NCBI GenBank assembly: GCA_903898645.1
Contig: CAIUGE010000018.1
Location: 1 to 21,589, forward strand
Source: Oligoflexia bacterium
Lineage (GTDB): Bacteria > Bdellovibrionota > UBA1018
Reading direction: 5' to 3'
Length of the DNA stretch: 21,589 nt
Part shown: in pieces, positions 5,531 to 21,550 of the stretch
How positions within the stretch are numbered: the stretch's first letter is position 1
How the letters are laid out: each line of letters begins with the position of its first letter
Made by a program: the position numbers and the translations under genes
The notes under the pieces: generated by a model
Told to the model about the DNA's origin: nothing
Seen by the model: only the letters and a program-made list of their open reading frames with translations
Databases searched by the model: none

Positions 5531-5642
5531 TCACGTATTCTCCCAAAGAAACATGTGCCTACCATTTTCTTGGTTTAAAAGCACGGTCCAATTTTGCCTT
5601 TAAGCATTGACCCTGCTAGGCCTGGTGGTAGTCTTCTTGGTC
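5531..5642. promoter_or_regulatory. Divergent intergenic region, presumed to hold promoters for livHMGF (leftward) and the xer-like gene (rightward).
   Basis: Only a 112-nt gap separates the divergently transcribed livH and the ORF starting at 5643. No sigma motifs could be confirmed by eye. Confidence 0.3.
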
Positions 5643-6464
5643 ATGAGTAAGAAAATTCCAATGAGGCTAGCTATCAAGAGTTTTCAGGGGTTTTTGGAGG
5701 GTACCGGGCGTTCTGCGAATACGTGTCGCAATTATGTGCTCGATCTTGAGGCTTTCGCTGAGTTCTGCCCAACGATTGACCAGATCACAGACGGCGTCAT
5801 TGCTCTTTTCCGGGAAGCACTCAAAGCACAAGGTCTTGGTGCTAATACAAGGCGTCGCAAGCTTTTGACACTTTCGCTTTTTTTTAAATATCTTGCGCGG
5901 CGCAAAAAGATTGACCTTTTGTTCGCAAGAAAAATGCCAGCGCCACATAAAGTAGAGCGTATCCCAGAGACAGTACCGCTTGCTGATTTTAAAGCGGCAG
6001 TTCTCCAATTGCCACAAGGTCCTGTACGTCTCCTTCTTTGGGTGATGATTGAAACGGGCTGTCTTGTTAGTGAGCTGATTAAACTTCATCGTAATGACTG
6101 GGCCGTGCCTATTCTTGTGATTGATAAAGGGTGCTCTCGTGAGCGTACCTTGGTGCTTTCAGATAACATGTTGAGTAGTGAGCTTGAGTCCATGCCTCAA
6201 GGCAGTCTGTTTCCTGGGCGTACGTCTGTCGGATGTATGTCTGCGCGTGCTGTTGAGCTGGTTCTTGCAGACCTCTCTCCCCAACTTATTGGACATCATG
6301 TAACGCCTCGCGTTTTGCGCCATTCTGTTGTGCGTTTTTGGTTTGAGCAAGGGGTGGGTCAGGATGAGATTAAAAGGCGGCTTGGCTTGAAAAGTAACTA
6401 TGCTTTCAAAGCGTATGGCGCTCTTTTAGATCCAACTTTTAAAGAGCATCCAAGCCCGAAATGA
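5643..6464 (+). CDS. Xer-like tyrosine recombinase paralogue with degenerate catalytic residues (possibly inactive or variant).
   Basis: N-terminal SAM-like domain (FLEGTGRSANTCRNYVLDLEAF, compare LSxNTLxAYRRDL). In the C-terminal catalytic region ETGCLVSEL has Cys where the conserved Arg of GLRxSEL sits (TGT at 6060-6062). RVLRHS has Arg at the first His position of HxLRHS. The Tyr-containing KAYGALL aligns with QIYTHL. The ATG at 5643 is preferred over the TTG at 5607 given in the track. Confidence 0.6.
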   Translation: MSKKIPMRLAIKSFQGFLEGTGRSANTCRNYVLDLEAFAEFCPTIDQITDGVIALFREALKAQGLGANTRRRKLLTLSLFFKYLARRKKIDLLFARKMPAPHKVERIPETVPLADFKAAVLQLPQGPVRLLLWVMIETGCLVSELIKLHRNDWAVPILVIDKGCSRERTLVLSDNMLSSELESMPQGSLFPGRTSVGCMSARAVELVLADLSPQLIGHHVTPRVLRHSVVRFWFEQGVGQDEIKRRLGLKSNYAFKAYGALLDPTFKEHPSPK

Positions 6465-7715
6465 CTCAGAGGGGAGCTTGAGTGCAGCGAGGATTGGGTA
6501 AAAAAGTATAAAAAGACTGATGCAGAGACCGAGGTAGACTTTTCTTGGCCACGTAGCAAAATCTTTGTTACGAAAGAAGACATAGGCGAGGGCTAGGCTG
6601 AGCATCATGCCAGCAGGGTAATAGTAGTAGTAAAACTGAATCCTGCGTGGGATAAAAAACCAGCACCCGTAAAAAAGTACATAAAAGTAGATAATAAAAA
6701 AAGCGCTGCGTGCTCTTTGGTGCACTAACGCGCGCAGACAATAGATAAGCGCTAGCATACCACTCCACATGATTAAGGGGTTGCCGATCATCAGAACGCC
6801 ACGTATCGAATCTTTTCCTTCCTTATCAAAGGAATACCAGATAGGGCGCCTGAGAAGTGGCCAGTCAAGAGGGTAGCTCATGTAGGGGTGATTGCTGATA
6901 ACACGAAGCTGGCCCCCGTACATGGTGATCTGTGCTTGGATAAGCTCCGAGAGGGATCGTGGTCCACCTGGTGTGAGAAAAAGAGGGATGTAGGTGAGTG
7001 CATACACACCAAGAGGCAGAAAGATAAAACAGACCGCAATATCTTGAAAGGTTATCCCTTGCCAGAGTTTTTGACTGTACCAGTCAGTTTGTCTGGGTGT
7101 ATCAAAAAAAACGCGCCACGATTGAAGTGTGCGGACCAAAAGGATAAGACCTAGGATACCAAGCCATGGAATGATCCCAAACCATTTGCATGCTATTGTG
7201 AGCCCAAGCAATATGCCTGTACGTGCCCAGAGGGTTACAGTTGCTGTCTGTGAGGCACCCTCGATTCTCCAGCTATCTGCGAAGAATGCCAGTGCCCAGA
7301 TCAAAAAGCCAATCATATAGCTATCAAGCATCCCGATTCTGGCTTGCACAAAAAGAAGGTTATTTGAAAGGGTGACCACTGCAACAAAAAGAGCAGCCTT
7401 TTTGCTACGGAAGAGATTGAGGGCAAGTGTGTACATGCCAGCAAGGGTAATACCGCCAAAGACAGCACTGAGAAAACGCCATCCAAAGGGTCTGTCGCCA
7501 AAAAGCCAGATGCTGACAGCGAGGATCATTTTACCAAGGGGGGGGTGTTCCCAGTTCTGATTTGTTTTCCATGTAAGGATCTGGTTTGCTGAGGGGACAT
7601 AATGGAATTCATCAAAACTAGCGCCACGCGGAAATTGAATATTGATCAGGAAAAATGCGGTACTGAGAAAAAACAGAATAATGGGGATTTTCAAAGGCGA
7701 GTTTTTCAGGTACAC
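6426..7715 (-). CDS. PMT/ArnT-like GT-C family membrane glycosyltransferase (PMT_2 / GT39/GT83-like).
   Basis: A 429-aa polytopic membrane protein. The first periplasmic loop carries FDEFHY, which resembles the DE motif of dolichyl/undecaprenyl-phosphate-sugar glycosyltransferases. GDRPFGWRFLSAVFG-type segments follow. It overlaps the convergent xer-like gene by 39 nt. Confidence 0.55.
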   Translation of the reverse strand: MYLKNSPLKIPIILFFLSTAFFLINIQFPRGASFDEFHYVPSANQILTWKTNQNWEHPPLGKMILAVSIWLFGDRPFGWRFLSAVFGGITLAGMYTLALNLFRSKKAALFVAVVTLSNNLLFVQARIGMLDSYMIGFLIWALAFFADSWRIEGASQTATVTLWARTGILLGLTIACKWFGIIPWLGILGLILLVRTLQSWRVFFDTPRQTDWYSQKLWQGITFQDIAVCFIFLPLGVYALTYIPLFLTPGGPRSLSELIQAQITMYGGQLRVISNHPYMSYPLDWPLLRRPIWYSFDKEGKDSIRGVLMIGNPLIMWSGMLALIYCLRALVHQRARSAFFIIYFYVLFYGCWFFIPRRIQFYYYYYPAGMMLSLALAYVFFRNKDFATWPRKVYLGLCISLFILFYPILAALKLPSESFRAWMLFKSWI

Positions 7716-7768
7716 CGAATAGAAGACTAGATCGAGTCAACATTTTCGTCAAGAAAGAAGAGTACAAT

Positions 7769-8251
7769 ATGCATTCGAATGATCCATGTCCATGCGGGAG
7801 CTTGAAGAAATATAAACGTTGCTGTGGAAAAAAACCAACGGATGCTCCCGTTGTTGTTGATCCTCAGTCCATGAAGGATGCGGCGCAAAATATGGATCCT
7901 GCGATGATGCAGTCAGTGATGGGTGTGTTGCAAAAGATGCCCAAGGGGCAACAGATTCGGTTTCAACAGCTTTCTCAGAAAATAATGCAGGGGAAAAATG
8001 TGACGCGCGAGCTCGCGGATCTTGAGCGGGGCATGGGTGCTGAAGTAAAGGCGCTTCTCGATGTCCTGAAGATGACTCCTCAGTTCCAGTCTGCTTTAGA
8101 GCCACAGGCAGAGATGAGTGTTGAGCAAGCTCAGGAGATCGTGCGTCAGGCTGTCGAAACAGGGAAAGTTTCTGAAACGGAAGCCAAAGAGCTGCTTGAA
8201 ACAAAAGAGACCACACTCTGGAATCGTATTTTTCCAGGAAAGAAAAAGTAA
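7769..8251 (+). CDS. SEC-C-motif (metal-binding CPCGSxKKYKxCCG) domain protein, YchJ-like.
   Basis: N-terminal DPCPCGSLKKYKRCCGK is a canonical SEC-C Zn-binding motif. The rest is helical and acidic. Stop and start overlap with the next gene as TAATG. Confidence 0.6.
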   Translation: MHSNDPCPCGSLKKYKRCCGKKPTDAPVVVDPQSMKDAAQNMDPAMMQSVMGVLQKMPKGQQIRFQQLSQKIMQGKNVTRELADLERGMGAEVKALLDVLKMTPQFQSALEPQAEMSVEQAQEIVRQAVETGKVSETEAKELLETKETTLWNRIFPGKKK

Positions 8252-8970
8252 TGCAGAACTGGGGGGTGATTCAATTACCAGCGTTGCCGCTCAGTGCTGG
8301 TTTTTGTGAGCCGCAGGCATCTGATTTTCTTGAGCATGGTATGCGACTTGTGGAAGAAGCTCGCCTGTGTGCTGGATTTGATGGGCTGTGGATCGAGAAC
8401 TACAGCGATGCTCCTTTTGGTCCTCTCCATCCTGCGGCTATTGCTGCCTGCTCTATGCTTGTTGCAGCTCTCCGTGAAACCTTTGATCAGCAATTGGGCC
8501 TTTGGATCCACGGTGATGAGCATGCGGCTCTCGGTATTGCTTCAGTAACAGGATGCACAGCAATACGTATAAGTGTTCCATCGGCTTCTTTAGTACGCAC
8601 ACGTACACAACTTGGGGCTCGAAGTGTTCAGTTTTTTGCAGATATAGTGACGCGCCCTTGGAGTCGAACAGAACAGGAGCGTCTTGTTGTGACTATTGAA
8701 GAGCTCTATTTTCGTTTTCAGGCTGATGCCATCGTTGTACGGGGTCCTGGCTTAGGTCGTGAACCTCATGATGCATCTTTGGAGTGCATCTCTGAAATAG
8801 CTCGTCGGTACGGTATTCCAGTTTTTCTTGGCAGTGGGGCACAAAAGGATCGATTGCCCGTCTTTGCTCCGTTAGTAGATGGGGTTTTTTGGGATGGGGC
8901 ACTTCGTAAAAAAGGAGAGCTTGGTGCTCCTCTTGATCGAGCTCGGGTACGGCGTATACTTAAAACATGA
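8251..8970 (+). CDS. BtpA/SgcQ-family (TIM-barrel) protein.
   Basis: VIQLPALPLSAG … GFDGLWIENYSDAPFG matches the BtpA-family signatures (HLxPLPGSP … IENFGDxPF), as recalled. RBS AGGAAAG upstream. Confidence 0.55.
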   Translation: MQNWGVIQLPALPLSAGFCEPQASDFLEHGMRLVEEARLCAGFDGLWIENYSDAPFGPLHPAAIAACSMLVAALRETFDQQLGLWIHGDEHAALGIASVTGCTAIRISVPSASLVRTRTQLGARSVQFFADIVTRPWSRTEQERLVVTIEELYFRFQADAIVVRGPGLGREPHDASLECISEIARRYGIPVFLGSGAQKDRLPVFAPLVDGVFWDGALRKKGELGAPLDRARVRRILKT

Positions 8971-10154
8971 AGACCCTTGGTCAACTTCTTCTCCGGCGGT
9001 TATCTCGTAAGCCAAAAGGGCAGACAGACAAAGGGCGAACGCCAGCTTCACAGAAGAAGAAAAAACGGTCTTCTAAAAAAATCCAGCTTTCAGTTCCTAG
9101 TCCTCAGGCACAGACGGCGCTTACCCTGGTACCCGCTTTCCGCACACAGCAAGAGCAGTCGTCGCAGACCTTGGTTACAGGCGATCTGATACGGCCGCAC
9201 GATGATCTCAAGAAATGTATTGAGGCGTTTTTGTGCGATCAGCGCTCTCCGCATACCCGTAAGGCTTATGGGAAGGATCTGAAGCGCTTTGTGCGCTTTC
9301 TTCGTATGCGTCAGCACGCCTTTGGGCTCGAACAATTGACGCGCAGTATTGTGATTGCTTACAAAGAGTACCTTTTGGCAGACGGCCTCCAGGATACGAG
9401 TGTTGATCGGCATTTGGCGACGCTCAAGAGCTTTTTCTCATGGCTTGTAGATGATGGGATTTTGATGAAAAGTCCGGCTGATGGGGTGCGCTTTCTTAAT
9501 CCCAAGCGACTTTCGACAACTAACGGATTTACAGATGAAGAGGTAGTTCGTGTGCTGCAAGCACCTAATTTGCACGCACGGTCAGGCGCTATGCACTATG
9601 CTATACTTATGGTGCTTTTTTACTGTGGCTTACGGCGCAGCGAGGTGACGCAGCTACGAGTCTCGAGCATTGGCCTTGAAAAGGGCAAGCACCATGTGCT
9701 TCGGGTGCGAGGTAAGGGCAACCAGGAGCGGATGCTGGTGCTTTTACCTACTGTATACCATGCGATTTGTTACTATCTGACGCTCTCAAGGCGGACGCCC
9801 AAGCCAGATGAGTTTTTGTTTGCACCTATCAGAAATAATCGCACCAAGGTGCTTGCGAAGGGGATAGACCCATCTATGGTATTTTACATTGTTACCAAGT
9901 ATGCGAAAAAAGCTGGCATCCAAACGCGTGTATCACCCCATTCCTGTCGAGCAACGGCAATATCTAACGCTCGCGATCATCATGTGCCAGATCGCGCGAT
10001 CCAAGAGTTTGCTGGTTGGGCATCACCTGATATGATTACACATTATGATAAGCGCCGAACCTTGATTGAAAATGCAGCAGCCTGGAGTATCCTCTATGGG
10101 AGAAATGAAAGAGATCTTCCAACGATTCGTGAAGAAAGCGACACGCCAGCATGA
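8967..10154 (+). CDS. Site-specific tyrosine recombinase, XerC/XerD family (intact catalytic residues), with an unusual Lys/Ser-rich ~80-aa N-terminal extension.
   Basis: Core-binding domain motif HTRKAYGKDLKRF. Catalytic motifs: GLRRSEV (Arg I), RGKGNQERMLVL (Lys), HSCRAT (HxxR), GWASPDMITHYDKRR (Trp and Tyr). ATGA overlap with the btpA-like stop. Confidence 0.8.
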   Translation: MKTLGQLLLRRLSRKPKGQTDKGRTPASQKKKKRSSKKIQLSVPSPQAQTALTLVPAFRTQQEQSSQTLVTGDLIRPHDDLKKCIEAFLCDQRSPHTRKAYGKDLKRFVRFLRMRQHAFGLEQLTRSIVIAYKEYLLADGLQDTSVDRHLATLKSFFSWLVDDGILMKSPADGVRFLNPKRLSTTNGFTDEEVVRVLQAPNLHARSGAMHYAILMVLFYCGLRRSEVTQLRVSSIGLEKGKHHVLRVRGKGNQERMLVLLPTVYHAICYYLTLSRRTPKPDEFLFAPIRNNRTKVLAKGIDPSMVFYIVTKYAKKAGIQTRVSPHSCRATAISNARDHHVPDRAIQEFAGWASPDMITHYDKRRTLIENAAAWSILYGRNERDLPTIREESDTPA

Positions 10155-11333: not shown

Positions 11334-11912
11334 ATGCTTATGAAAAATTTATTGTGGTGCTGGGTTTTTTTACTGCCTGCTTATGGGCATAAGGGTGTTC
11401 AGAATGAGCAAGGAGTGCCATCTGGTGAGCCAGGGCAATCTCCTGAGAGGTCAGGATCTTTTGGTGGATCACGGCGGGGGTCTGATAAAGAGTGTCAGTC
11501 TCATATAGGGTTTGGTTTTGTGTCATCTGTCATCGTTCTGTCAGATGGTTGGAGTACAGGTGTATTAGGAGATGAGTCATTTGGAGACCATCCGATGACA
11601 GTCGCTGAGTTTAGTGGTCATTGGAGCCCTAAGGCATTTATTAAGGTTTATAGTCAGCAAGAGTGTGAGGATTTTTTGAACGATGAGCGTTCGAGGGGCA
11701 TTCAGAAATTACGTATTCAATTAAAATTCAAAGTCATGTCCGTATTGCCCTTTGGGAATCTTCAAGAACTCATCTGCTTGGACTTGGGTGATAATGATCT
11801 GGATGTTTCAGATATGAAGTATTTTGAAGAGATTAATCACACAAATGTGACGCGACTGAAATTTAGATATAACGATTCATTGACGCAGACCTATTTAGAT
11901 AGTGTGTTTTGA
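11334..11912 (+). CDS. Secreted hypothetical protein (signal peptide MLMKNLLWCWVFLLPAYG) with one leucine-rich-repeat-like unit near the C-terminus.
   Basis: In-frame ATG at 11334 with GGAG 4 nt upstream, immediately after the ampG stop. The track's longer start at 11253 overlaps ampG and lacks an RBS. The LRR-like segment LPFGNLQELICLDLGDNDL fits LxxLxxLxLxxNxL. Confidence 0.5.
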   Translation: MLMKNLLWCWVFLLPAYGHKGVQNEQGVPSGEPGQSPERSGSFGGSRRGSDKECQSHIGFGFVSSVIVLSDGWSTGVLGDESFGDHPMTVAEFSGHWSPKAFIKVYSQQECEDFLNDERSRGIQKLRIQLKFKVMSVLPFGNLQELICLDLGDNDLDVSDMKYFEEINHTNVTRLKFRYNDSLTQTYLDSVF

Positions 11913-11945
11913 GTACCTCTACCGAGGTAGAGGTACTCAAAACAT
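11903..11945. terminator. Bidirectional intrinsic terminator: ~18-bp perfect stem with CGAG loop between convergent genes.
   Basis: GTTTTGAGTACCTCTAC (11906-11922), loop CGAG, GTAGAGGTACTCAAAAC (11927-11943). Flanking T/A pairs extend it. The stem overlaps both convergent stop codons (TGA at 11910-11912 on the plus strand and the minus-strand stop at 11945-11947). U-runs flank it on both strands (TTTT / AAAA). Confidence 0.8.
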
Positions 11946-13351
11946 CACGCTTCGTTTTTTTCTTCTGGCATGAGAGAGCCTAAGTACTTTGGTAGTTCGA
12001 GTCCTACATTTTGAGCGACGTCCTGCAGTGGAGGTATTGCTCGAACGAGACCACGAACTGCATTTGACAGAGCGTTTGCGCCATCGGTGCCTTGGCCGCT
12101 ATCCCAAATAGTGAATTTGTCGATCTTGAGGTGCTTCATCGCTTCTGTTTGAGCGCGAACAAGCTCTGGCATCTGTTCGATCGTCAATAGTGTTGGTAGT
12201 TTTTCAGCTGCAACGTGGATAAGGTTTTTGTACCCATTCGCTTTTGCATCCAGCAAAGCTTGGATACCAGTTGCTTCTGCTCGTTTTCGCATCAAAAGAC
12301 CTTCAGATTCAGCATGTGCAATTTTTAGAATTCTCGCTGACTCTGCATCGGCTTGAGTCTCGACACGGCGTCGCTCTGCATCGGCTTGAATCTGAATACG
12401 CTTTGCTTCTACTTCCTGGGTTGCGAGTGTTTCTTTTTCAAGACGCGCAACTTCTTGCTCCTTTTGTGCACGAAGTACTGCTGTATCAGCTTCAGCATTG
12501 GCAACTTCACTTTTTTGTTTTGCCTCTGCCTGTCTTACCTGCAGGTTAGCTGTGTATTCTGCAACTTCTGCTTTTGAGCGGTTTTCGCCTTTGACAGCGT
12601 CAGCATCAAGAGACGCAAGACTAACACGCTGCATCGCAATTGCTTGTGACTTGCCGACTTCTGTTTGAGCTTTTTGCTCAGCAACGGTCGTTTCTCGTTC
12701 ACGGTAGGCTTGTGCGACGCCGACCGCGCCGATTTTTTCTTGCACTGCCACTTCAATGTTTGCTCTATTGACAGCTTCGGATGCAGCCTTTTTACCTATG
12801 GCAAGAATGTAACCTGCATCATCATTCAGGTCTTTGATATTCACGTTGATCACGTGGAGGCCAATTTTCTGGAGCTCTGTATCTACGTTACTGTTGACGA
12901 GATCGACAAGCTTTTCTCGGTGCTGATTGATCTCCTCGATTCTCATGGTTGCGAGTGCTTGGCGGAATTGGCCTAAAATGATCTCAGATGCCTGGAGTTG
13001 AACACCTGCTTCACTGAGCCCTAAAAGACGCTCTGCAGCATTCATAAGAACTTCTGGGTCTGTTGATATCCCGATGGTGAAGGTAGACGGGACATGAACG
13101 CGGATATTCTCCTTTGAGAGAGCTCCTTTGAGGTCGATATCAAGAGCCATTGGGTCCAAGCTCAGATAACTGTAGTCCTGAAGGATAGGGATGATGATGG
13201 CGCCGCCACCATGAATACATTTTGCTGTTCTGTTTCCACCAATGTTCCCGAAAACAACAAGCACCCTGTTCGAGGGGCACCGCTTATAGCAGGATACAAC
13301 GAAGAGAAAGATCGCAGCGAAGAAACCACCAAATACTATTAATAATGTCAT
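11945..13351 (-). CDS. Flotillin / SPFH (band-7) domain protein, FloT/YqiK-like.
   Basis: N-terminal TM segment, then an SPFH core (VVFGNIGGNRTAKCIHGGGAIIIPILQDYSYLSLDPMALDIDLKGALSKENIRVHV). A long Ala/Glu/Lys/Gln-rich coiled coil follows (EAKQKSEVANAEADTAVLRAQKEQE…), typical of flotillins. RBS AAGGAG 7 nt upstream of the ATG. Confidence 0.85.
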   Translation of the reverse strand: MTLLIVFGGFFAAIFLFVVSCYKRCPSNRVLVVFGNIGGNRTAKCIHGGGAIIIPILQDYSYLSLDPMALDIDLKGALSKENIRVHVPSTFTIGISTDPEVLMNAAERLLGLSEAGVQLQASEIILGQFRQALATMRIEEINQHREKLVDLVNSNVDTELQKIGLHVINVNIKDLNDDAGYILAIGKKAASEAVNRANIEVAVQEKIGAVGVAQAYRERETTVAEQKAQTEVGKSQAIAMQRVSLASLDADAVKGENRSKAEVAEYTANLQVRQAEAKQKSEVANAEADTAVLRAQKEQEVARLEKETLATQEVEAKRIQIQADAERRRVETQADAESARILKIAHAESEGLLMRKRAEATGIQALLDAKANGYKNLIHVAAEKLPTLLTIEQMPELVRAQTEAMKHLKIDKFTIWDSGQGTDGANALSNAVRGLVRAIPPLQDVAQNVGLELPKYLGSLMPEEKNEA

Positions 13352-13792
13352 AAGATCTCCTTTGTCGGGAGGGTTATTAGCATGGAGTCAGTACGTATGC
13401 AAGAAAATTCTTCATTATTGTGCCATGCTGACAGCTTCCATGGATGATGTGGTAATTGGGCCGATAAAGCATTGGGGTCTTTTGAGGGACTTCTTTGTCG
13501 TTGTTGGATATCGATTTTAACATCAGAGAAGTTGGCGTCTCCTTGCATTATGTAATTCATCTGCTCGACCATGTTGCTTCAATACATGCTGACGTTTGAT
13601 CTTAGGAGTCGATGGTGTAATAAATTGTGTAGTTTTTTACATCTTCCCTCTGTCCAAGAAACATCGTCATGAGGCAAAAGAGAAGTTTCAGGCTGTACTT
13701 TAAAAAATAATCGCAAGGATATTCGTGAATCATCCATCAGTCTCTTGCGAGAGTTTTTTCGATGCACGGGGGGTATGACATAAAGCATTAGT

Positions 13793-13890
13793 GAGAGAAT
13801 CAGATTCATAAATGGGTCTCTTTGGTCGCATGAGTAGAGATGTGGAGGGTTTTGTAAAACTTAAACTCAACTGAAAAAGGGACGCACTTA
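13793..13890 (+). repeat. Copy A of a ~100-nt repeat containing a conserved 20-codon mini-ORF (13812-13874: MGLFGRMSRDVEGFVKLKLN).
   Basis: About 80% nucleotide identity to the reverse complement of 21445-21550. Shared blocks are ATGGGTCTCTTTGGYCGCATGA, GATGTGG, TAAAACTTA, TCAACTRAAAAWGGGAC, and upstream AGAATCAG. It lies 89 nt upstream of the 530-aa ORF. Confidence 0.6.
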
Positions 13891-13962
13891 TGTGTTCGGG
13901 TTGTTGGGTTTCATTGAACTCAACTATAGACAAAGTGCCTTTGGCAGGGTAAGATCGCGCCC

Positions 13963-15555
13963 ATGTATATGGGTTGGTATTTCTTAAGTGTTGTTTGTTT
14001 TTTTTCGTCCATTCCAAAATGGAGCCTTGGGTCGGGTGTCTCTGAAAAGGTGTCTTTAGATGAAGAAAAAAAAATTTCCCTTGAGCCTCGCGAAATATTG
14101 ACCCAAGTGCTTACGTTTCGTCGTTGTGATGAATTTTACATCGACTCTTTATATGGCATAATGCGTCATTACAGTAAGCTGGAAGAAGAGCTTCCGTTGG
14201 ATAAGGGCCTTCGCGTTGCGTTTTTTTCAAAACATTTTCGACAAAGAAGTTTTCGTGGAGATAGTACTCGTCTTGCAGCCCTTCGTGCAATCAATAGTGA
14301 CCTTGCTCTTTTAAAAGAGGTTCTTTTTAAGAAGAAGAGTGCATTAGACCTTCAGGAGGCGTACTATTCTTTTGAAGATATAATGAATGATTTAAAAAAA
14401 ACAGATTCAGAAATTAACGCTTCTTGGAACAAAGATCATCCTCTTTATATTTATTCTAACTATAATTTACTAAAAAGTCTTATTAGTTCATTCAAAAAAG
14501 AATATAAAGAAAATCTTCTTTACGACGACATTAAAATTCATGATAATTGCAAATGCGACGACTGCACCAAAATGCTTAAATTTTATATTGTACAATTAAA
14601 AACGGATGTTCGTAATTATTTGTTAGCATCTTTGCATGCAAAAATTAAACCTCTTGAAGCCCTTCTAAATACTTCTGATTCCGATCGATTTTCAAATACA
14701 GCATTCTTTAAGGAAAATGCTCCCTGTTTCGAATTTCTTGATTCTATGCCAAGAGCGTTGACTCGGCCACTTGAACCAGCGCTCATTTTAAAACCGCCAG
14801 TCGTCGTGCATAGGCGTGAAGCGCAAAGCGTTCCAGACAGCGTGCCCCCTGCTATAGAAAACTCCGATAAGCAGGACAGAAGTGGTGAACAGTGTTCATT
14901 AGAGGATGATTTTTTTGAAGTTGATGAGTTGGCGTTTGAGGAAGGGCAGTCCTCAGAATCTGAGGATGATATTTATAGTGTAAAAAAAGATCCTCAGTCA
15001 AAAGTAAAAAAGAAGCATAAACCATCTAGAAGGAAGGCAGCAGTAAGAGACTCTCAAAGAGTTAACGCGGATCGACGAGTGAGGGCTGGGTCGCAAAAAG
15101 ATGTCGAGGCGTATCAGAGTATAGCAGAATCTAGTCAGTCTCATTATGAACTTGTGTCGCCGTCGATTTTTCTTCCGGCACGTAGTATTGAGGTATTGAA
15201 GCATCTTGAAGTCAAGCCTTACTTGAGGCATGTTTTGATTAGTGACTATCTTAAGCTTCTTGATGACTTCATTCGATTTAATCTTGTTTGTAATAAAGGA
15301 CGATTAATTCAATCGTATTTTCAATGTAAAGCGCGGCTAGGGTCAGAATATTCTGACATACTACATCTTAATGGCGGTGAAGGTGAGTCAATTCGTATTG
15401 TCGGGACTCATGGGGTAGCAACGCAGCTCGTATTCCATTATCCTCACAGGGATTCAAAAGACGATATCCCTAAAGAGTACTTGCATTTTTTTATTCGACC
15501 ATTCAAAGAGCTTGGTGTTCAGTCTGACGCTATTACCGTTATTGATGATCGATAA
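13963..15555 (+). CDS. Hypothetical protein (530 aa) with an AT-rich middle section and an acidic-then-basic low-complexity linker. No recognisable domain.
   Basis: Long ORF with an ATG start. The linker region reads SLEDDFFEVDELAFEEGQSSESEDD…KKKHKPSRRKAAVRD. The C-terminal ~130 aa is not low-complexity (…ILHLNGGEGESIRIVGTHGVATQLVFHYPHRD…). Local AT enrichment at about 14340-14720. Confidence 0.5.
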   Translation: MYMGWYFLSVVCFFSSIPKWSLGSGVSEKVSLDEEKKISLEPREILTQVLTFRRCDEFYIDSLYGIMRHYSKLEEELPLDKGLRVAFFSKHFRQRSFRGDSTRLAALRAINSDLALLKEVLFKKKSALDLQEAYYSFEDIMNDLKKTDSEINASWNKDHPLYIYSNYNLLKSLISSFKKEYKENLLYDDIKIHDNCKCDDCTKMLKFYIVQLKTDVRNYLLASLHAKIKPLEALLNTSDSDRFSNTAFFKENAPCFEFLDSMPRALTRPLEPALILKPPVVVHRREAQSVPDSVPPAIENSDKQDRSGEQCSLEDDFFEVDELAFEEGQSSESEDDIYSVKKDPQSKVKKKHKPSRRKAAVRDSQRVNADRRVRAGSQKDVEAYQSIAESSQSHYELVSPSIFLPARSIEVLKHLEVKPYLRHVLISDYLKLLDDFIRFNLVCNKGRLIQSYFQCKARLGSEYSDILHLNGGEGESIRIVGTHGVATQLVFHYPHRDSKDDIPKEYLHFFIRPFKELGVQSDAITVIDDR

Positions 15556-15591
15556 AAATAGGTTAGAATTTTGTTCAAGAAAAGAATAAAT

Positions 15592-17229
15592 ATGATTCAA
15601 GAATTAGACGTTTTAGCTAAAGATATTAAGAAGATACGAATTTGGGATGCGCTTGTTTGGATTTTTGTTATTTTGCCAGTTATTACTGGAGGTGTATGGT
15701 ACTATTCTTCAAAACTCAAAATTGAGCTTGTTGATCCCGAAGTTACCGTTATCATTTTGGTTTTTGTGGCTTTTATATGGAAAGTTCCTTTGCAAAAGAG
15801 TTGGATATTTTTAATTCTGAAGAAGATGGGATTCTGCTGGAAAAAAAACATTAATAAAATGCCTGGGCTATTGTGGGCAGCAACAGCCGGTGTGAGTATT
15901 GTTCTTGGTTTTGCCTCTTTGAGGCGGCATTGGGCAATACATAGCTCGGCTTTTGACCTTGGTATTTTTACCAACACAATCTGGAATTTGACTCATGGCG
16001 GAGGTTATATAAGCTCACTGAAAGGTGGTCTTAATCTTTTTACTGACCATCAGTCTCCTTTGTTTTGGTTATTGGTACCATTTTTTACGCTGCTACCAAG
16101 ACCAGAGACATTGCTCGTTTTGCAGGCAATAGGATTGGCAGTAGGTGGTCCAGCAACTTATTGGTTAGGGAGGCAGTACGGCCTCGGTCAACGTAGTGCC
16201 ATACTACCTCTTTTGTATTGGGGTTACCTTCCTATGCGCGATGCAAATCTCTTTGATTTTCATCCAGAGGTATTCATGCTGCCTCTGTTTCTTTGGGCCA
16301 TTGTTGTGGCGCATAAAAAAAGCTTTTGGTCGGTACCTTTGTTTCTTGCAGCGCTTGGTGCAAAAGAATCTGCTCCCGCTGTTGCTTGTGGTATTGGGCT
16401 CGCTTGGATGTTTGGTGCAGCGCCTCGCGGTATGAAAAAAATGGGCGTTATGCTTTGCATTTTTTCAATGGTGCTGTTTGTTTTTGATACACAATGGGTG
16501 CCTCGCCACTTTGGTGCGCAGGACTATGCATACATGTCTCATTACAGTGATCTTGGTCATAATGTCTTTGAAATCATTTTGTCTCCTTTTATCTACCCAA
16601 AGTTATTTATAGATAGATTTTTTGGTCTTGCACAGTTCAGGTTCTTCTTCGGCACATTAGCTCCCCTCGGGTTGTTGCCTCTTCTGGGTTGGCCTGCATT
16701 TTTAGCTGCTATCCCTGGATACTGTATAATGTTTTTGAGTCACTCGAAGTTAGTTTTTGGTTTTCATTATGGCATTGAATGCTCGGTAGGTCTTTTTTGG
16801 GCACTGGCCCCCGCCCTGAAACGTTGGTTCTCTCTTCCGTGGATTATCTTTTGGTTCTTTGCTTTTATTGGGCGTAGCGAAATGTATGCTATAAGGTACC
16901 ATACTCCGGATACGCATGCTGTATGGTTTCGTCAAGTATTTCTTCCATGTGTTGATCCTCAGCTTTCAATTGTTGCAAGCGATGCTTTGGTTCCACATCT
17001 TTCAACTCGTCATTGGATAGGGGTCTTGCCGCATTTTGAGATCCCAGGCTCATGGGCGGCATGTGTTATTGTTGATACAGCATTTGCTAACTGGCCACTC
17101 GGCATTGAAAATGTCAAGAAATTACAATTCGAAGGATATACAAGAGAATACTCTTGTGGTTCTTTGACTGTGCTTCATCGTGATGCGTCGTGTTTGCGTT
17201 GCCAACCTCAGTGTGATGATGGTTCGTGA
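15592..17229 (+). CDS. Polytopic membrane protein, DUF2079-like (uncharacterised, possibly GT-C-related).
   Basis: At least 10 hydrophobic helices. The motifs SAFDLGIFTNTIWNLTHGGG, FTDHQSPLFWLLVPFF and LLVLQAIGLAVGGPATYW resemble my recollection of the DUF2079 family. The ATG at 15592 is preferred over the TTG at 15571. Confidence 0.5.
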   Translation: MIQELDVLAKDIKKIRIWDALVWIFVILPVITGGVWYYSSKLKIELVDPEVTVIILVFVAFIWKVPLQKSWIFLILKKMGFCWKKNINKMPGLLWAATAGVSIVLGFASLRRHWAIHSSAFDLGIFTNTIWNLTHGGGYISSLKGGLNLFTDHQSPLFWLLVPFFTLLPRPETLLVLQAIGLAVGGPATYWLGRQYGLGQRSAILPLLYWGYLPMRDANLFDFHPEVFMLPLFLWAIVVAHKKSFWSVPLFLAALGAKESAPAVACGIGLAWMFGAAPRGMKKMGVMLCIFSMVLFVFDTQWVPRHFGAQDYAYMSHYSDLGHNVFEIILSPFIYPKLFIDRFFGLAQFRFFFGTLAPLGLLPLLGWPAFLAAIPGYCIMFLSHSKLVFGFHYGIECSVGLFWALAPALKRWFSLPWIIFWFFAFIGRSEMYAIRYHTPDTHAVWFRQVFLPCVDPQLSIVASDALVPHLSTRHWIGVLPHFEIPGSWAACVIVDTAFANWPLGIENVKKLQFEGYTREYSCGSLTVLHRDASCLRCQPQCDDGS

Positions 17230-17244
17230 TCAGGAAGGCTTTTT

Positions 17245-17820
17245 ATGACTGAACCCATTCGATGCGCTTGGTGTCTCTCTGATCCTCTGTATATTCAGTA
17301 CCATGATGAGCAGTGGGGTGTCCCGGTCCATGAAGACAGGAAGCTCTTTGAGTTTCTCGTCTTAGAAGGAGCGCAGGCTGGACTGAGTTGGCTCACTGTT
17401 TTGAAAAAACGTCAAGGTTACAAAAAAGCATTTCTTGATTTTAATGTACATGCTCTAGCGAAACTTGGCGAAAATGATATCCAAGAACTGCTTTTGAATG
17501 ACGGCATTATCCGTCATCAAGGTAAAATAAGGTCTGTGATAAAAAACGCTCAAGCTTTTATCAAAGTGCAAGAAGAGTATGGTTCCTTTGATGTCTATAG
17601 CTGGAGGTTCGTTGGTGGCAAGCCGATTGTTCATTCCTTGCGAAGGCTTGAGGATATGCCCAGTGTGAGTAAAGAATCTGAAGCCTTCAGTAGAGACCTT
17701 AAACGACGAGGGTTCGTTTTTGTTGGACCAACTATTATGTATGCCTATATGCAAGCTGTTGGCATGGTGAACGATCATCTAGTTTCATGCATGAGATTTC
17801 GAACATCTTTCGAAAAGTAA
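17245..17820 (+). CDS. tag: DNA-3-methyladenine glycosylase I (Tag).
   Basis: RCAWCLSDPLYIQYHDEQWGVPVHEDRKLFEFLVLEGAQAGLSWLTVLKKRQGYKKAF matches the Tag signature (RCxWC…YHDxEWGxP…LFExLxLEGFQAGLSWxTIL). RBS AGGAAGG 9 nt upstream. Confidence 0.9.
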   Translation: MTEPIRCAWCLSDPLYIQYHDEQWGVPVHEDRKLFEFLVLEGAQAGLSWLTVLKKRQGYKKAFLDFNVHALAKLGENDIQELLLNDGIIRHQGKIRSVIKNAQAFIKVQEEYGSFDVYSWRFVGGKPIVHSLRRLEDMPSVSKESEAFSRDLKRRGFVFVGPTIMYAYMQAVGMVNDHLVSCMRFRTSFEK

Positions 17821-18321
17821 AATTTATAGCAAATATTGGCTTGTTGCGTTTGCCATTTGAAGACAGGCTCCATCAAGGTGTTATGTCGGCTTCGGCGCGG
17901 TCTATAGTAGTTGTGGGATGGGCCTGCTGTGAGTGCGTGGTAGCTCCATACACAGCAACCATGCCTATTGATCGTAAAACGTCTTAAGTCCCCGTCTGGA
18001 GTTCTGAGGCTAACTTGTTAAAAAAGGAAGACAAAATTCGAAAGATATGAACTTTTTGAGTATTTTTGTTCAAAATCGCGACGACAAAGAATTTTTACGA
18101 GTTAACTCGACGAGTCATTCCTGAATGTGACCCTCCCAGAGCGAATGACGCACTCTCATAGAGAATCGCTGCTAAAAAAGCGATCTCATTGCTCATAAAC
18201 ATTTTTTGTGGTAGAGCTCCTCGCATGAAGCATCTGAAGGGGAGGGGGGAAGTTTTTTGTTTATGAATGTTTCGTGAAAAAAGGAGTCTGCTGGTTTGAG
18301 ATGCTTTTTGAAAGGCAAAAT

Positions 18322-18927
18322 ATGCAGCTACTTAAAGGTCTTGTTCTGTGGAGTTGTATTGGTAATTATGCATTCGCCGTTTGTGAACACGAGAGAAGTG
18401 AGTACAAGGAATTTTATGATCTCCATGAGAAATTGTGCGCTGCATCTCAGGTTTGTAATATAGCAGGGAACGCGCTGGGAATTGGCTTTGCGATTCCCAC
18501 ATTCGGTCTGAGTTTTGTCCTTGGGGGTTTGGTGGGAGGCGTCCCTGGGTTAGCAGTTCACAATGCGCGCCGGATCAGAGATGAAAAAAAAGTAAATCTT
18601 GATCGTTGTGAAGCCCTTGCTGAGCAGGAGCGACAAGCGCGTCAGAATCAATTACAGCTTGATCTAGCTGCACAACAGCAGAGAGAAGTGCGGGTAGATA
18701 CTGTGCAAAAAAAATACGATCAGCAAATGATTCAAGCCGGAACTCAGTACCGAGATGCAGTTCAGCCTCTGATTCAGGGAATGGTAGATGAGGGCATCGA
18801 TACAACATTGCCTGAAGCGATTGAGGTTATTGCAGGGGCGAAAAATGATCTCACGACTGCCCTTAATCGTCAATTAGAGGAAATCAATAGTCATCGTCGT
18901 AGCGAGTTAGACCAGGCATCATTATGA
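18322..18927 (+). CDS. Membrane-anchored coiled-coil protein. It has an N-terminal signal-peptide-like segment, a ~42-aa bilobed hydrophobic domain (Inc-like) and a Gln/Glu/Arg-rich coiled coil.
   Basis: Preferred start ATG at 18322 (MQLLKGLVLWSCIGNYAFA…); the track's GTG at 18274 and the ATG at 18301 are alternatives. Hydrophobic block CAASQVCNIAGNALGIGFAIPTFGLSFVLGGLVGGVPGLAV (~18436-18560). Coiled coil EQERQARQNQLQLDLAAQQQREVRVDTVQKKYDQQ. The stop overlaps the next start as ATGA. Confidence 0.5.
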   Translation: MQLLKGLVLWSCIGNYAFAVCEHERSEYKEFYDLHEKLCAASQVCNIAGNALGIGFAIPTFGLSFVLGGLVGGVPGLAVHNARRIRDEKKVNLDRCEALAEQERQARQNQLQLDLAAQQQREVRVDTVQKKYDQQMIQAGTQYRDAVQPLIQGMVDEGIDTTLPEAIEVIAGAKNDLTTALNRQLEEINSHRRSELDQASL

Positions 18928-20663
18928 GTTTTGCAAAAGGTCTTATGCTTGCTCTCGTGGTGGCTCATGGCACCTGTGCTGCTGGAAATGAGGACCGTCC
19001 GCCTGTTGGGTGGTTGGAGGCGAGCATAGGTGGGCCATCAGCGCCCTCTGCTTCTTTTCAGAGTTTGGGTAATAGTGACATTAGTGCACTCTTTGGCGTC
19101 GGGCCGGATATAGCCGGCCCGCTCTTGCGTCATAGCCAAAACGCTGTTGCACGTGCAGAGAATAGTGAGCGGCAGATTCAACAGAGCATTGATGAGAGCG
19201 CTCGGCGTACAGAAGACAGGGGGCGTAGCGTAGCTGCACTGACTGATGAGATGCAAGGTCTCATCAGTCAATCAGTTGAGGATATGTTGCAAGCAAGAAG
19301 ACTGAACCGGGCAGTGGTTGATTTGAGTCAGGCGCCTTTTGTTGCAGAAGCAGATCTGCCTTACCAATTCCATTCGCCAGCCGGAGAATTTCATGAAGAA
19401 GTAGTTCAGCTTTATAGGGATTTTTATCAGATTGAGCCTCGATTTGGTAAGCAACAAAAAGCAAAAGAGATAGGGCTGATAGCAGTTGAAGAGGCTGATC
19501 ATGAATTTTTTCTAGGTGACAGAGCAAGTGCTGAGGCTTTTAAGGAGCTCAGCATAGGTTTGCTCGATGTGGCGGTTGGACTTGATCCTGTGACTGGGTT
19601 TGGCCGATCTGCCTATGAGCTTTTGTATGGAATAAATTTGATCACAGGTGCAAAGCTTGGTACCCTTGAGCGCAGTCTCGCATTTGTAGGGGTTGCGACA
19701 GCGGGTGGTTCGAAATCCATCACCCAGACCAGTAAGGTCATGTGGCGCATTTTTGAGCGCACAGGTCACCTTCTGCAAGATCGTCATGCAGTCCAGATAG
19801 CGATACAAGCAGGAGAGCGTCTCGTTGAGCGTGCGGGTCACTTGCTTGGCGCATGGCGAAGAAATTACAAGATAACGGCCATAGAGGATGCGGTTGCGGG
19901 GAATGCATTATTTCCTCACTCTCCGCCACCATTTCAGCCTGATACGCAGGTTGTGTTTTTCGAAACAGTGAAAGACAAGGTAGCAGCTGTCATGGGCACC
20001 GCTGCTGATGGAACCACAGGTACTTTTGCGCTGGACATTTTAACAGCAGGAAGAGTTGCGGTTGGTCCAGTAGCTGACGCCGGGTCTGCGGCTGATTATG
20101 TATTCCATAAAACTGAGGAACCTTTGACTATTGATGCTACTGCTGCATTTCAGCCTGATACTGGTGTTGGCACCTTGGGTCAGCCTGCGTTGGACCAGAA
20201 AGCGAAGGAGCTTCAGCAGGACCCTGGGTATCAGGCTTCTGGTGCTGGTATAGGCATGGGTACGACAGGAGATGCTCCGGTTGGTTCAGCGGCGGACGTC
20301 GGTTCTACTGCTGGACACGTGCTTCGTAAAGTGCCGGAACCAGTAGCTACGGATTCTGCTGGGCAGGCGGATGCAGTTAAGCCAACCTTTGAGCCTAACC
20401 CGAAGCACGGAGCAGGTCAGAAAGGCAGAGCAAACCCTGCACCTACTAATCCGCAAGAGACACTTGATAACTCAGTGAGAGTATCCGAAAATTCCTCGAG
20501 AAAAGTTGGGGCCGATAAGGCTACTGGGGAGTTTGACGTTTTTGATGAGCACGCGGCTGGGAAGTTCCACGGACATTCTAGGGTCTGGGAAGAGTTAACG
20601 GAAGCGATGAAGTCAGCGTTAATAAAAGAAAAAATCACTAACCATAAAGGCAAGATTCTATGA
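18924..20663 (+). CDS. Large secreted hypothetical protein (579 aa). It has a Sec-type signal peptide, an RHS-like DPxTG motif, Gly/Ala/Thr-rich internally repetitive region and a His-rich C-terminal ~85-aa module. Candidate toxin or effector.
   Basis: N-terminus MSFAKGLMLALVVAHGTCAAG. LDPVTGFGRS (DPVTGFGR at 19584-19607) resembles the DPxTGRF motif of RHS/polymorphic-toxin cores. Internal 16-nt direct repeat CATTTCAGCCTGATAC at about 19930-19945 and 20146-20161 (both encode FQPDT). C-terminal module from about 20403: KHGAGQKGRA…GEFDVFDEHAAGKFHGHSRVWEEL. ATGA overlaps on both sides. Confidence 0.55.
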   Translation: MSFAKGLMLALVVAHGTCAAGNEDRPPVGWLEASIGGPSAPSASFQSLGNSDISALFGVGPDIAGPLLRHSQNAVARAENSERQIQQSIDESARRTEDRGRSVAALTDEMQGLISQSVEDMLQARRLNRAVVDLSQAPFVAEADLPYQFHSPAGEFHEEVVQLYRDFYQIEPRFGKQQKAKEIGLIAVEEADHEFFLGDRASAEAFKELSIGLLDVAVGLDPVTGFGRSAYELLYGINLITGAKLGTLERSLAFVGVATAGGSKSITQTSKVMWRIFERTGHLLQDRHAVQIAIQAGERLVERAGHLLGAWRRNYKITAIEDAVAGNALFPHSPPPFQPDTQVVFFETVKDKVAAVMGTAADGTTGTFALDILTAGRVAVGPVADAGSAADYVFHKTEEPLTIDATAAFQPDTGVGTLGQPALDQKAKELQQDPGYQASGAGIGMGTTGDAPVGSAADVGSTAGHVLRKVPEPVATDSAGQADAVKPTFEPNPKHGAGQKGRANPAPTNPQETLDNSVRVSENSSRKVGADKATGEFDVFDEHAAGKFHGHSRVWEELTEAMKSALIKEKITNHKGKIL

Positions 20664-21004
20664 GTAACCAGTATGAAAAGCCTGGCGTCCTTTCCAAAGA
20701 AGAGACTCTCAGTATCCTGAATGGTAATAATACAGTGGAACAAAAGGTACATGCTCTTGTTGGATCAGTTAATGCCATTGAGGACCATGCGTGGTTGCAA
20801 GAGCTATGTTTGAGCTATGTAAACCACAAAGATAAGTGGATAGCAGGAGCAGCGATAAACGGATTGGGAGACATAGCTAGGATCTTTGGTCAGCTTGACT
20901 TGAAGCTAGTGTTGGACAAGCTTAATACCACTAAGTCAGAACGAAAAGACCTAGCAGGTAAGATCGAAGATGCCATAGATGATATTAAAACTTTCGTAAA
21001 GTAG
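20660..21004 (+). CDS. Small soluble hypothetical protein (114 aa), translationally coupled to the preceding large protein. Candidate immunity or chaperone partner.
   Basis: Its ATG overlaps the upstream stop (ATGA). No TM segment or signal peptide, mildly acidic, no recognisable motif. Confidence 0.45.
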   Translation: MSNQYEKPGVLSKEETLSILNGNNTVEQKVHALVGSVNAIEDHAWLQELCLSYVNHKDKWIAGAAINGLGDIARIFGQLDLKLVLDKLNTTKSERKDLAGKIEDAIDDIKTFVK

Positions 21005-21444
21005 GTATGCTCTATGGGTTTTGATTTTTGGTTCAGTCCTTGTAAGGTCTAACTTTCTCCGTATGTTCCGCAGTAAAATGCCCGTATGAGAGCATGAGGA
21101 CGTTCTCGTTTTTGGCGTGCTTTGCACGAACCCATGCATCAGCGAACGTACATCCTCTTGCCAGTGTCGCTGGCCACTGGAGATGGCAAGCAAGCTAAGA
21201 CTGGTCGTCAATGACATATGTCGCAGTCCAGATTTACCTGGAAGCGTGATGGAAGTCCAAGTGACAGAGTCTTCTCGAATATTCGACTTCGAAAGACCAC
21301 ACCTCATGGCTTTGGATTCGCGCCTCTGCTGCAAGCCGTCCAGGTTCAAGCGGTGAGCGCACTCTAGGCTTTTTTTAAGCCTTGGATTTTTACATAACGC
21401 AAAATCGTTATGTAGGAAGGTAGAGTTCCATAACTCGGATTATT

Positions 21445-21550
21445 TTAAGGGAGCATGTCCCATTTTTAGTTGATGCTAAGTTTTATAGTAGCTCCCACAT
21501 CCATATTCATGCGGCCAAAGAGACCCATTCCTGATTCTGTCTTTCTCTCT
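21445..21550 (-). repeat. Copy B (inverted) of the ~100-nt repeat with mini-ORF 21466-21528 (MGLFGRMNMDVGATIKLSIN).
   Basis: The reverse complement of 21466-21528 reads ATGGGTCTCTTTGGCCGCATGAATATGGATGTGGGAGCTACTATAAAACTTAGCATCAACTAA. That is 51 of 63 nt identical to copy A, with a matching upstream AGAATCAG block and downstream AAAWGGGAC. Confidence 0.6.

Follow-up and report, generated by a model that had tools for sequence, protein, structure and literature searches.

The 21,589-nt window analysed here, which is the entire contig CAIUGE010000018.1 of an Oligoflexia bacterium, contains two diverged, oppositely oriented copies of a non-coding element of about 90 nt, designated copy A (plus strand) and copy B (minus strand). 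The repeat is real and non-random. It is sharply bounded, the 20-codon open reading frame (ORF) present in both copies carries no coding signal, and the two copies share a predicted fold on one strand only. We tentatively favour the reading that the pair represents a short, lineage-restricted structured intergenic repeat that may be constrained as RNA on the strand of the mini-ORF. An element of this kind would be transcribed, would act at the RNA level and could affect the expression of its neighbours.

If the fold is real, the pair would be a new structured intergenic repeat or cis-acting RNA, restricted to the lineage of a bacterium for which hardly any relatives have been sequenced. An RNA family could be built up from it as this lineage gains genomes; it would open no new mechanism. 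The main practical value of the analysis is negative: present evidence does not justify taking two inverted repeats that carry a mini-ORF and surround a gene block for a mobile element, for an invertible switch or for a small-protein gene.

An inverted pair of sharply bounded repeats

The window contains an inverted pair of 94-nt arms that align without gaps and are identical at 72 of 94 positions (77%), with 7573 nt between them; comparison of the window with itself by blastn gave E = 1.3e-13 for the pair. An earlier note on this sequence had described inward-facing inverted repeats of roughly 100 nt and about 80% identity that bracket a block of genes. The arrangement was found as described, and its length and identity are corrected to the values given here. 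The sole other significant non-self match within the contig was a 40-nt palindrome at 11905–11944. The repeat core ATGGGTCTCTTTGGNCGCATGA occurs exactly twice in the window and was absent from 100 shuffles of it. The best-conserved block, with 22 of 23 positions identical (13811–13833 on the plus strand, equivalent to 21507–21529 on the minus strand in copy B), is internal and spans the start of the mini-ORF. Conservation is lowest in the outermost 22 nt (15 of 22 identical). These 22 nt lie upstream of the mini-ORF, and 9 nt (8 identical) follow it inside the arm, in place of the approximately 20 and 13 nt estimated before.

The similarity ends abruptly at equal positions in the two copies. 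The sequences flanking the 94-nt arms are no more similar to each other than shuffled sequences (P = 0.39 and 0.31), so the repeat unit is sharply bounded. Translated comparison of the arms and their surroundings by tblastx found no similarity past ∼110 nt, and no DNA- or protein-level relationship longer than the 94 nt came to light. Copy A is located in a 610-nt non-coding gap between a flotillin gene on its left (11945–13351, minus strand) and a gene for a 530-residue protein on its right, on the plus strand. Copy B is located in a 585-nt stretch without a called gene, beyond a terminator-like hairpin on the plus strand, and begins 39 nt before the end of the contig. The bracketing of the block by the two copies thus partly reflects where the contig stops.

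A covariance model (R1) built from the two copies scored 118 bits at 13790–13890 and 119 bits at 21450–21550. Run on the window with filters off, it recovered only these two copies, the next best score being 13 bits, and on 1.39 Mb of fetched loci it recovered nothing. Likewise, nhmmer and a regular expression for the peptide, applied to 95 fetched loci and the window, returned only the two copies. A degenerate pattern that covers both copies, ATGGGNYTNTTYGGNMGNATGNNNNNNGAYGT, had no match in 185,579 GTDB species genomes or in viral contigs, and its single match in JGI metagenomes was a chance match inside a GC-rich ORF. Searches of plasmids and phages with blastn returned nothing. Loci of the nearest flotillin relatives (74–60% identity) and 80 loci containing tag, which is phylogenetically uninformative, showed neither synteny nor the element. 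For the partial ORFs at the contig end, exact look-ups and a concatenated-frame homology search found nothing. Copy number, for which the earlier note had proposed a blastn survey, stands at two in the contig.

A predicted fold shared on one strand

The consensus structure predicted by RNAalifold covers 82 nt in each copy. Its closing stem joins alignment columns 20–36 with columns 82–101 (13809–13825 with 13871–13890 in copy A; 21531–21515 with 21469–21450 in copy B) and, as predicted, covers both the AUG and the stop codon of the mini-ORF. Inside it lies a conserved 6-bp hairpin (13826–13831 with 13840–13845 in copy A; 21514–21509 with 21500–21495 in copy B), the loop of which holds three of the differences between the copies. 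A third hairpin is copy-specific in sequence. All 24 consensus pairs form in both copies, although 10 of the 48 paired positions differ. Eight pairs vary; in six of them a transition has changed one side (U-A to U-G, for example), and the other two carry double compensatory changes (U-A to G-C and A-U to G-C), which lie just outside the sequence-similar region. When the pairing partners were slid by 1–3 columns as a control, only 31–59% of the cells could pair.

The consensus energy is −14.6 kcal/mol, compared with −7.5 ± 2.5 kcal/mol in column shuffles that preserve conservation (z = −2.8, P = 0.009), and the 82-nt core gave a similar result (z = −2.9, P = 0.005). The antisense strand showed no such signal (z = +0.5); that is, the signal is strand-specific. 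The real pair also compared favourably with neutrally mutated copies of A or B, with P values of 0.02–0.05 when mutations were placed at random sites and of 0.003–0.055 when they were placed at the observed sites. The consensus structure did not change when the window boundaries were varied. Folded singly, both 82-mers adopt the three-way architecture at minimum free energy (−18.9 kcal/mol, z = −1.93 for copy A; −17.8 kcal/mol, z = −0.93 for copy B), and the core of the closing stem in copy A reaches pair probabilities of 0.83–0.99. These data are suggestive of a strand-specific fold of about 82 nt common to the two copies. A structured RNA was among the alternatives listed earlier, and it gains modest support from a fold that is specific to one strand and in which every change preserves pairing, as judged from two sequences only.

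Several observations weigh against this interpretation. With two sequences, covariation is beyond statistical test, and RNAalifold selects the best-fitting structure and then scores it. The stability of the single sequences is ordinary (z = −0.7 and −0.4 for the 121-mers; −1.9 and −0.9 for the 82-mers). Within 101 nt of sequence, the preferred partner of the UCUCUUU of copy B is a GA-rich tract upstream of it, a pairing which leaves the closing stem with a probability of ∼0.09, and within 201 nt copy A refolds, its 5′ half pairing with the region where the 530-residue protein gene starts. The two copies form their third hairpin out of register. Neither a promoter nor a terminator was associated with copy A or copy B in a scan of the window. 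Rfam gave no match at the gathering score in the window and no relevant match at E ≤ 10 for the two regions, and no further copy of the repeat was found in the genome, metagenome, viral, plasmid and phage collections.

Two other structural assignments were tried and rejected. An inverted partial copy at 13653–13683 that might pair with the core gave a duplex energy no better than shuffles (P = 0.50). A group II intron or attC-like element received no support from Rfam, and on manual inspection the attC R″ motif fits copy A only.

As we picture it, the two arms would be diverged copies of an intergenic element of about 82–94 nt, under constraint for a nucleic-acid fold on one strand and not for a peptide. 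Its closing stem would pair the start region of the mini-ORF (UAAAUGGGUCUCUUUGG) with the stop region (CUGAAAAAGGGACGCACUUA). The 20-codon ORF would then be a by-product or, at best, an upstream ORF with poor initiation, its AUG and stop codon being hidden in the stem. The element itself would fall into the broad class of small, structured intergenic repeats, which are transcribed along with adjacent genes and influence the mRNA of those genes. The site of action would be the 5′ region of the 530-residue protein gene for copy A and, for copy B, the 3′ side of a minus-strand transcription unit that is not seen in the contig. The flanking of the 7.5-kb block by the two copies would be a coincidence.

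Repeats of this class are known from other bacteria. The pneumococcal BOX, RUP and SPRITE elements are intergenic sequences of ∼80–130 nt confined to narrow lineages; their diverged copies lie in either orientation, form stem-loops in co-transcribed RNA and contain chance ORFs on both strands (PMC3049150). The present pair is alike in that its copies lie in non-coding stretches of ∼600 nt, on opposite strands, with a common predicted fold. The ERIC, Correia and Rickettsia palindromic elements have the same kind of properties. The pair differs from all these families in that only two copies are known, both on one contig, and in that it shows no terminal repeat or target-site duplication of the type seen in miniature inverted-repeat transposable elements (MITEs). 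Moreover, its fold uses G-U pairs and is strand-specific, and it has no sequence relation to any described family. Small regulatory RNA paralogues such as Qrr and OmrA/B likewise occur in multiple copies. They resemble the pair in consisting of ∼90-nt units with one almost invariant block of ∼23 nt and a variable remainder, and differ in that the present copies have no promoter, intrinsic terminator or Rfam match.

The pair could instead be a neutral relic of an old duplication, in which a short stretch of DNA copied a single time now serves no function and only coincidence accounts for the shared fold. We consider this unlikely, but serious enough to be kept in view. The unexceptional stability of the single-sequence folds and the lack of any other copy or relative in the searched collections agree with it, as do the equal conservation of all six reading frames and the frequent survival of the ORF in neutral copies (see below). 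A candidate source also exists, possibly the 3′ end and downstream region of a gene that apparently enters copy B from beyond the contig end, in the frame ...RQIKEVIENIELERERQNQEWVSLAA*. Two frames at copy B, that of the mini-ORF and a second one (...EWVSLAA), are open to the contig end, and copy A retains ...ENQIHKWVSLVA* in the same frame, right after two stop codons. A relic does not readily explain why the similarity breaks off sharply at both ends and at equivalent positions in the two copies, which suggests a defined unit, or why all ten differing paired positions keep pairing, and do so on one strand only. The better sharing of structure by the real pair than by neutral copies (P = 0.003–0.055) also argues against a relic. 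The codon usage of the 26-codon frame gave a log-likelihood difference of +0.5. The structured intergenic repeat remains the reading that we prefer.

The mini-ORF and other readings of the pair

The 20-codon ORF noted earlier is present in both copies. Its coding part differs at 13 of 60 bases, with 3, 6 and 4 differences at codon positions 1, 2 and 3, respectively, and one further difference lies in the stop codon (TGA versus TAA). The spread over codon positions had been reported correctly, and the count of 12 differences is revised accordingly. These changes alter 8 of the 20 residues, and only one change is synonymous. When the aligned 94 nt were translated in six frames, 17–19 identities among 30–31 residues were obtained in every frame, so that the frame of the mini-ORF is not special. 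In a neutral simulation matched to the observed number of substitutions and share of transitions, the start, the open frame and the stop were all kept in 23–29% of the copies, and 11% of the copies reached the observed BLOSUM similarity of the peptides (P about 0.11). Chance accounts for the conservation of the mini-ORF as well as selection does. The earlier argument from the substitution pattern against purifying selection on a peptide is borne out by these analyses.

That the mini-ORFs are paralogous genes encoding a 20-residue protein that starts with MGLFGRM is improbable against this background. The start, the length and the position of the stop are equal in both copies, and the stop has survived a change of TGA into TAA. 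Both peptides begin with the same seven residues and have a DV..KL..N pattern in common, the V to I and L to I replacements are conservative, and the codon-usage scores are slightly positive (+0.8 and +1.2). All of this would suit a small protein. The 13 coding differences and the eight residue changes that they cause, with similarity no better than in the other five frames or under neutral expectation, speak against it, as does the location of the AUG and the stop inside the predicted closing stem. Mini-ORF A has no Shine-Dalgarno sequence, and in mini-ORF B an AGGA stands 1 nt before the ATG and is not well spaced; as an argument against translation this is weak, because several genes of the contig also lack a clear site. 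Neither peptide matched a family when hmmscan was run against Pfam at E ≤ 10, and no protein in a database of 5.8 billion sequences matches any frame. The N-terminus of the mini-ORF peptide loosely recalls the N-terminal helix of PspA/Vipp1 (IM30), but this relationship was rejected, neither peptide matching Pfam PspA_IM30 at E ≤ 10. A conserved peptide receives no positive support from the data, which neither require nor exclude translation.

The mini-ORF might also be an upstream-ORF leader that acts as a translational attenuator of the 530-residue protein gene. Translation of the mini-ORF, or stalling within it, would reshape the RNA and govern initiation at 13963. Such a leader is decidedly improbable for the pair as a whole. 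A leader role had been suggested from the position of copy A, which lies on the same strand and 88 nt upstream of the gene. That suggestion fits copy A alone: on its own strand copy B has no credible gene within 445 nt downstream, only unconvincing ORFs, and it faces a terminator. In copy A the mini-ORF is embedded in predicted structure, and the 201-nt fold, in which the region where the gene starts is paired with the 5′ half of copy A, has an energy of −54.9 kcal/mol (z = −2.0). The gene has two candidate start codons, at 13963 and 13969, and both lie in a small hairpin formed by the palindrome GCCCATGTATATGGGT (13959–13974). However, no scheme of alternative hairpins is common to the two copies, and neither the peptide (8 of 20 residues differ) nor its codons are conserved, with no frame preferred. 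Moreover, the mRNA would not include copy A if a promoter-like site at 13927–13955 were genuine; one such site was found where 1.8 are expected by chance. Known attenuators of this type include that of ermC, the leader of which has 19 codons. Copy A is alike in having an ORF of ∼20 codons within RNA structure shortly upstream of a gene. The pair differs from ermC-type leaders in that copy B has no downstream gene, mutually exclusive hairpins are not shared and the peptide is unconserved, and the downstream gene is not of the regulated class known for such leaders.

A more elaborate combination is very improbable. Here a strand-specific three-way-junction RNA motif not described before, together with a translated 20-codon ORF, would make a dual-function riboregulator, and its copies would border a gene islet that varies between strains. 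Copy A, as sense RNA, could pair in trans or in cis with plus-strand read-through across copy B (complementary at 72 of 94 positions, and at 22 of 23 in the core) and couple expression or processing of the enclosed operon.

The weakest reading, which takes the repeats as the terminal inverted repeats of a 7.5-kb segment that is transposable or undergoes site-specific inversion and which had been offered as one explanation of the arrangement, hardly survives the absence of a recombinase and of a target-site duplication, the 77% identity and the collinearity of all eight other contigs of this population. It would suit the inversion of the copies around a block that contains a remotely related gene and a toxin-like cassette, the lower G+C content of the left part of the block (38–40% versus 45–50%) and the near-identity of the 23-nt core. 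Two tyrosine-recombinase-like genes 3.6–8 kb to the left, and three contigs of other assemblies that end at 21476, inside copy B, point the same way. Transposases bind and cleave at the outermost bases of terminal repeats, which are hence expected to be the best conserved, whereas here the outermost 22 nt are the least conserved and the best block is internal. No transposase, integrase or invertase was found among the six enclosed genes (Pfam, NCBIfam) or anywhere at 13.3–21.6 kb; for a MITE, a transposase gene between or within the repeats is not required. The outer flanks, ...TAAAGCATT and CCAGCTCGA..., have nothing in common and thus show no target-site duplication. An identity of 77% is far below that of active terminal repeats or recombination sites, and a strand-specific fold signal is unlike a site in duplex DNA. 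The DUF2079 gene and tag are ordinary chromosomal genes, and the bracketing itself depends on the contig end near copy B. Invertible segments and composite transposons also have two inverted copies around several kilobases of genes; the present pair differs from them in having no adjacent recombinase or transposase, a low identity, no target-site duplication and one observed orientation.

A comparison of synteny across strains had been proposed as a check for inversion. Eight other contigs from at least four assemblies are collinear with the window and none has an inverted junction, although coverage of the junctions is thin, one contig spanning copy A and none spanning copy B. The three contigs that end inside copy B stop exactly at 21476, which could mark a branch of the assembly graph caused by strain variation or by another copy. 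These stops are not evidence of mobility, since the contigs of this low-coverage population are broken at numerous points and the contig that spans copy A is unbroken.

As for the two tyrosine-recombinase-like genes, that at 5607–6464 has only the N-terminal SAM-like domain in Pfam, and that at 8967–10154 is full length and lies between btpA and the gene for an MFS (AmpG-like) transporter. Nothing links either gene to the repeat.

Enclosed genes and other features of the contig

The gene content of the enclosed block agrees with the earlier description, with the 530-residue protein, the DUF2079 protein, Tag and a three-gene cassette assigned with the help of Pfam. The coordinates of these genes and of the repeat features are collected in Table 1.

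Table 1. Positions of the repeat pair, its predicted folds and mini-ORFs, and the enclosed genes
Feature	Position	Strand	Basis or remark
Copy A	13790–13883	+	Sequence similarity: inverted pair, blastn, covariance model R1
Copy B	21457–21550	−	Sequence similarity; 39 nt from contig end
Predicted fold, copy A	13809–13890 (82 nt)	+	RNAalifold consensus
Predicted fold, copy B	21450–21531 (82 nt)	−	RNAalifold consensus
Mini-ORF A, MGLFGRMSRDVEGFVKLKLN	13812–13874	+	20 codons and TGA, preceded by an in-frame TAA
Mini-ORF B, MGLFGRMNMDVGATIKLSIN	21528–21466	−	20 codons and TAA
530-residue protein gene	13963–15555	+	Starts 88 nt downstream of mini-ORF A
DUF2079 membrane protein gene	15571–17229	+	Pfam
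Tag glycosylase gene	17245–17820	+	Pfam
Cassette of 217-, 579- and 114-residue protein genes	18274–21004	+	Pfam, NCBIfam
Terminator-like hairpin with T-run	21366–21382	+	Between cassette and copy B

A word-based search with the 530-residue protein recovers only the protein itself. Full HMMER searches found five remote homologues among 1.84 billion representatives (E values from 6e-10 to 2e-4), all of which match within its C-terminal 130–220 residues. Pfam identified no domain in the protein or in the five homologues. The ORF is a real gene, and the C-terminal part of its product represents an undescribed domain family.

The 217-residue product of the cassette is a predicted membrane and coiled-coil protein with weak, sub-threshold NCBIfam matches. 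The 579-residue product has a weak match, below the cutoff, to the pre-toxin TG (PT-TG) family of Pfam, and the 114-residue protein gene overlaps its gene; NCBIfam gave nothing for these two proteins. The layout of the cassette resembles that of a polymorphic toxin with its immunity gene. Other assemblies of the population break at 17867–18052 and restart at 17980–18421, and the head of one contig (L001) differs from the window to the left of ∼18366. Together with the three stops at 21476, these breaks suggest that the flanks of the 3.1-kb toxin-like cassette may vary within the population.

In relatives, an NfeD-like gene precedes that for flotillin. The idea that the 610-nt gap upstream of the flotillin gene is a decayed version of that NfeD-like gene was rejected, as tblastn returned no match. 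The nearest relative of the flotillin (74% identity) is encoded at 6384–7820 of a 14-kb Logan contig (L010), where its neighbours include many small unknown genes, an SNF2-type helicase and a lytic transglycosylase, which gives the locus a phage-like look. The 40-nt palindrome at 11905–11944 is 95% self-complementary and lies between a 192-codon ORF and the convergent flotillin gene; it is probably a bidirectional terminator.

The contig starts inside a group II intron, noted for positions 1–116 of the window, with a match of 50 bits to Rfam Intron_gpII (domains V–VI) at 41–116 on the plus strand. A multi-copy group II intron would explain why the contig ends at its left edge. The ORF at 147–776, which follows the intron, may be the 3′ exon.

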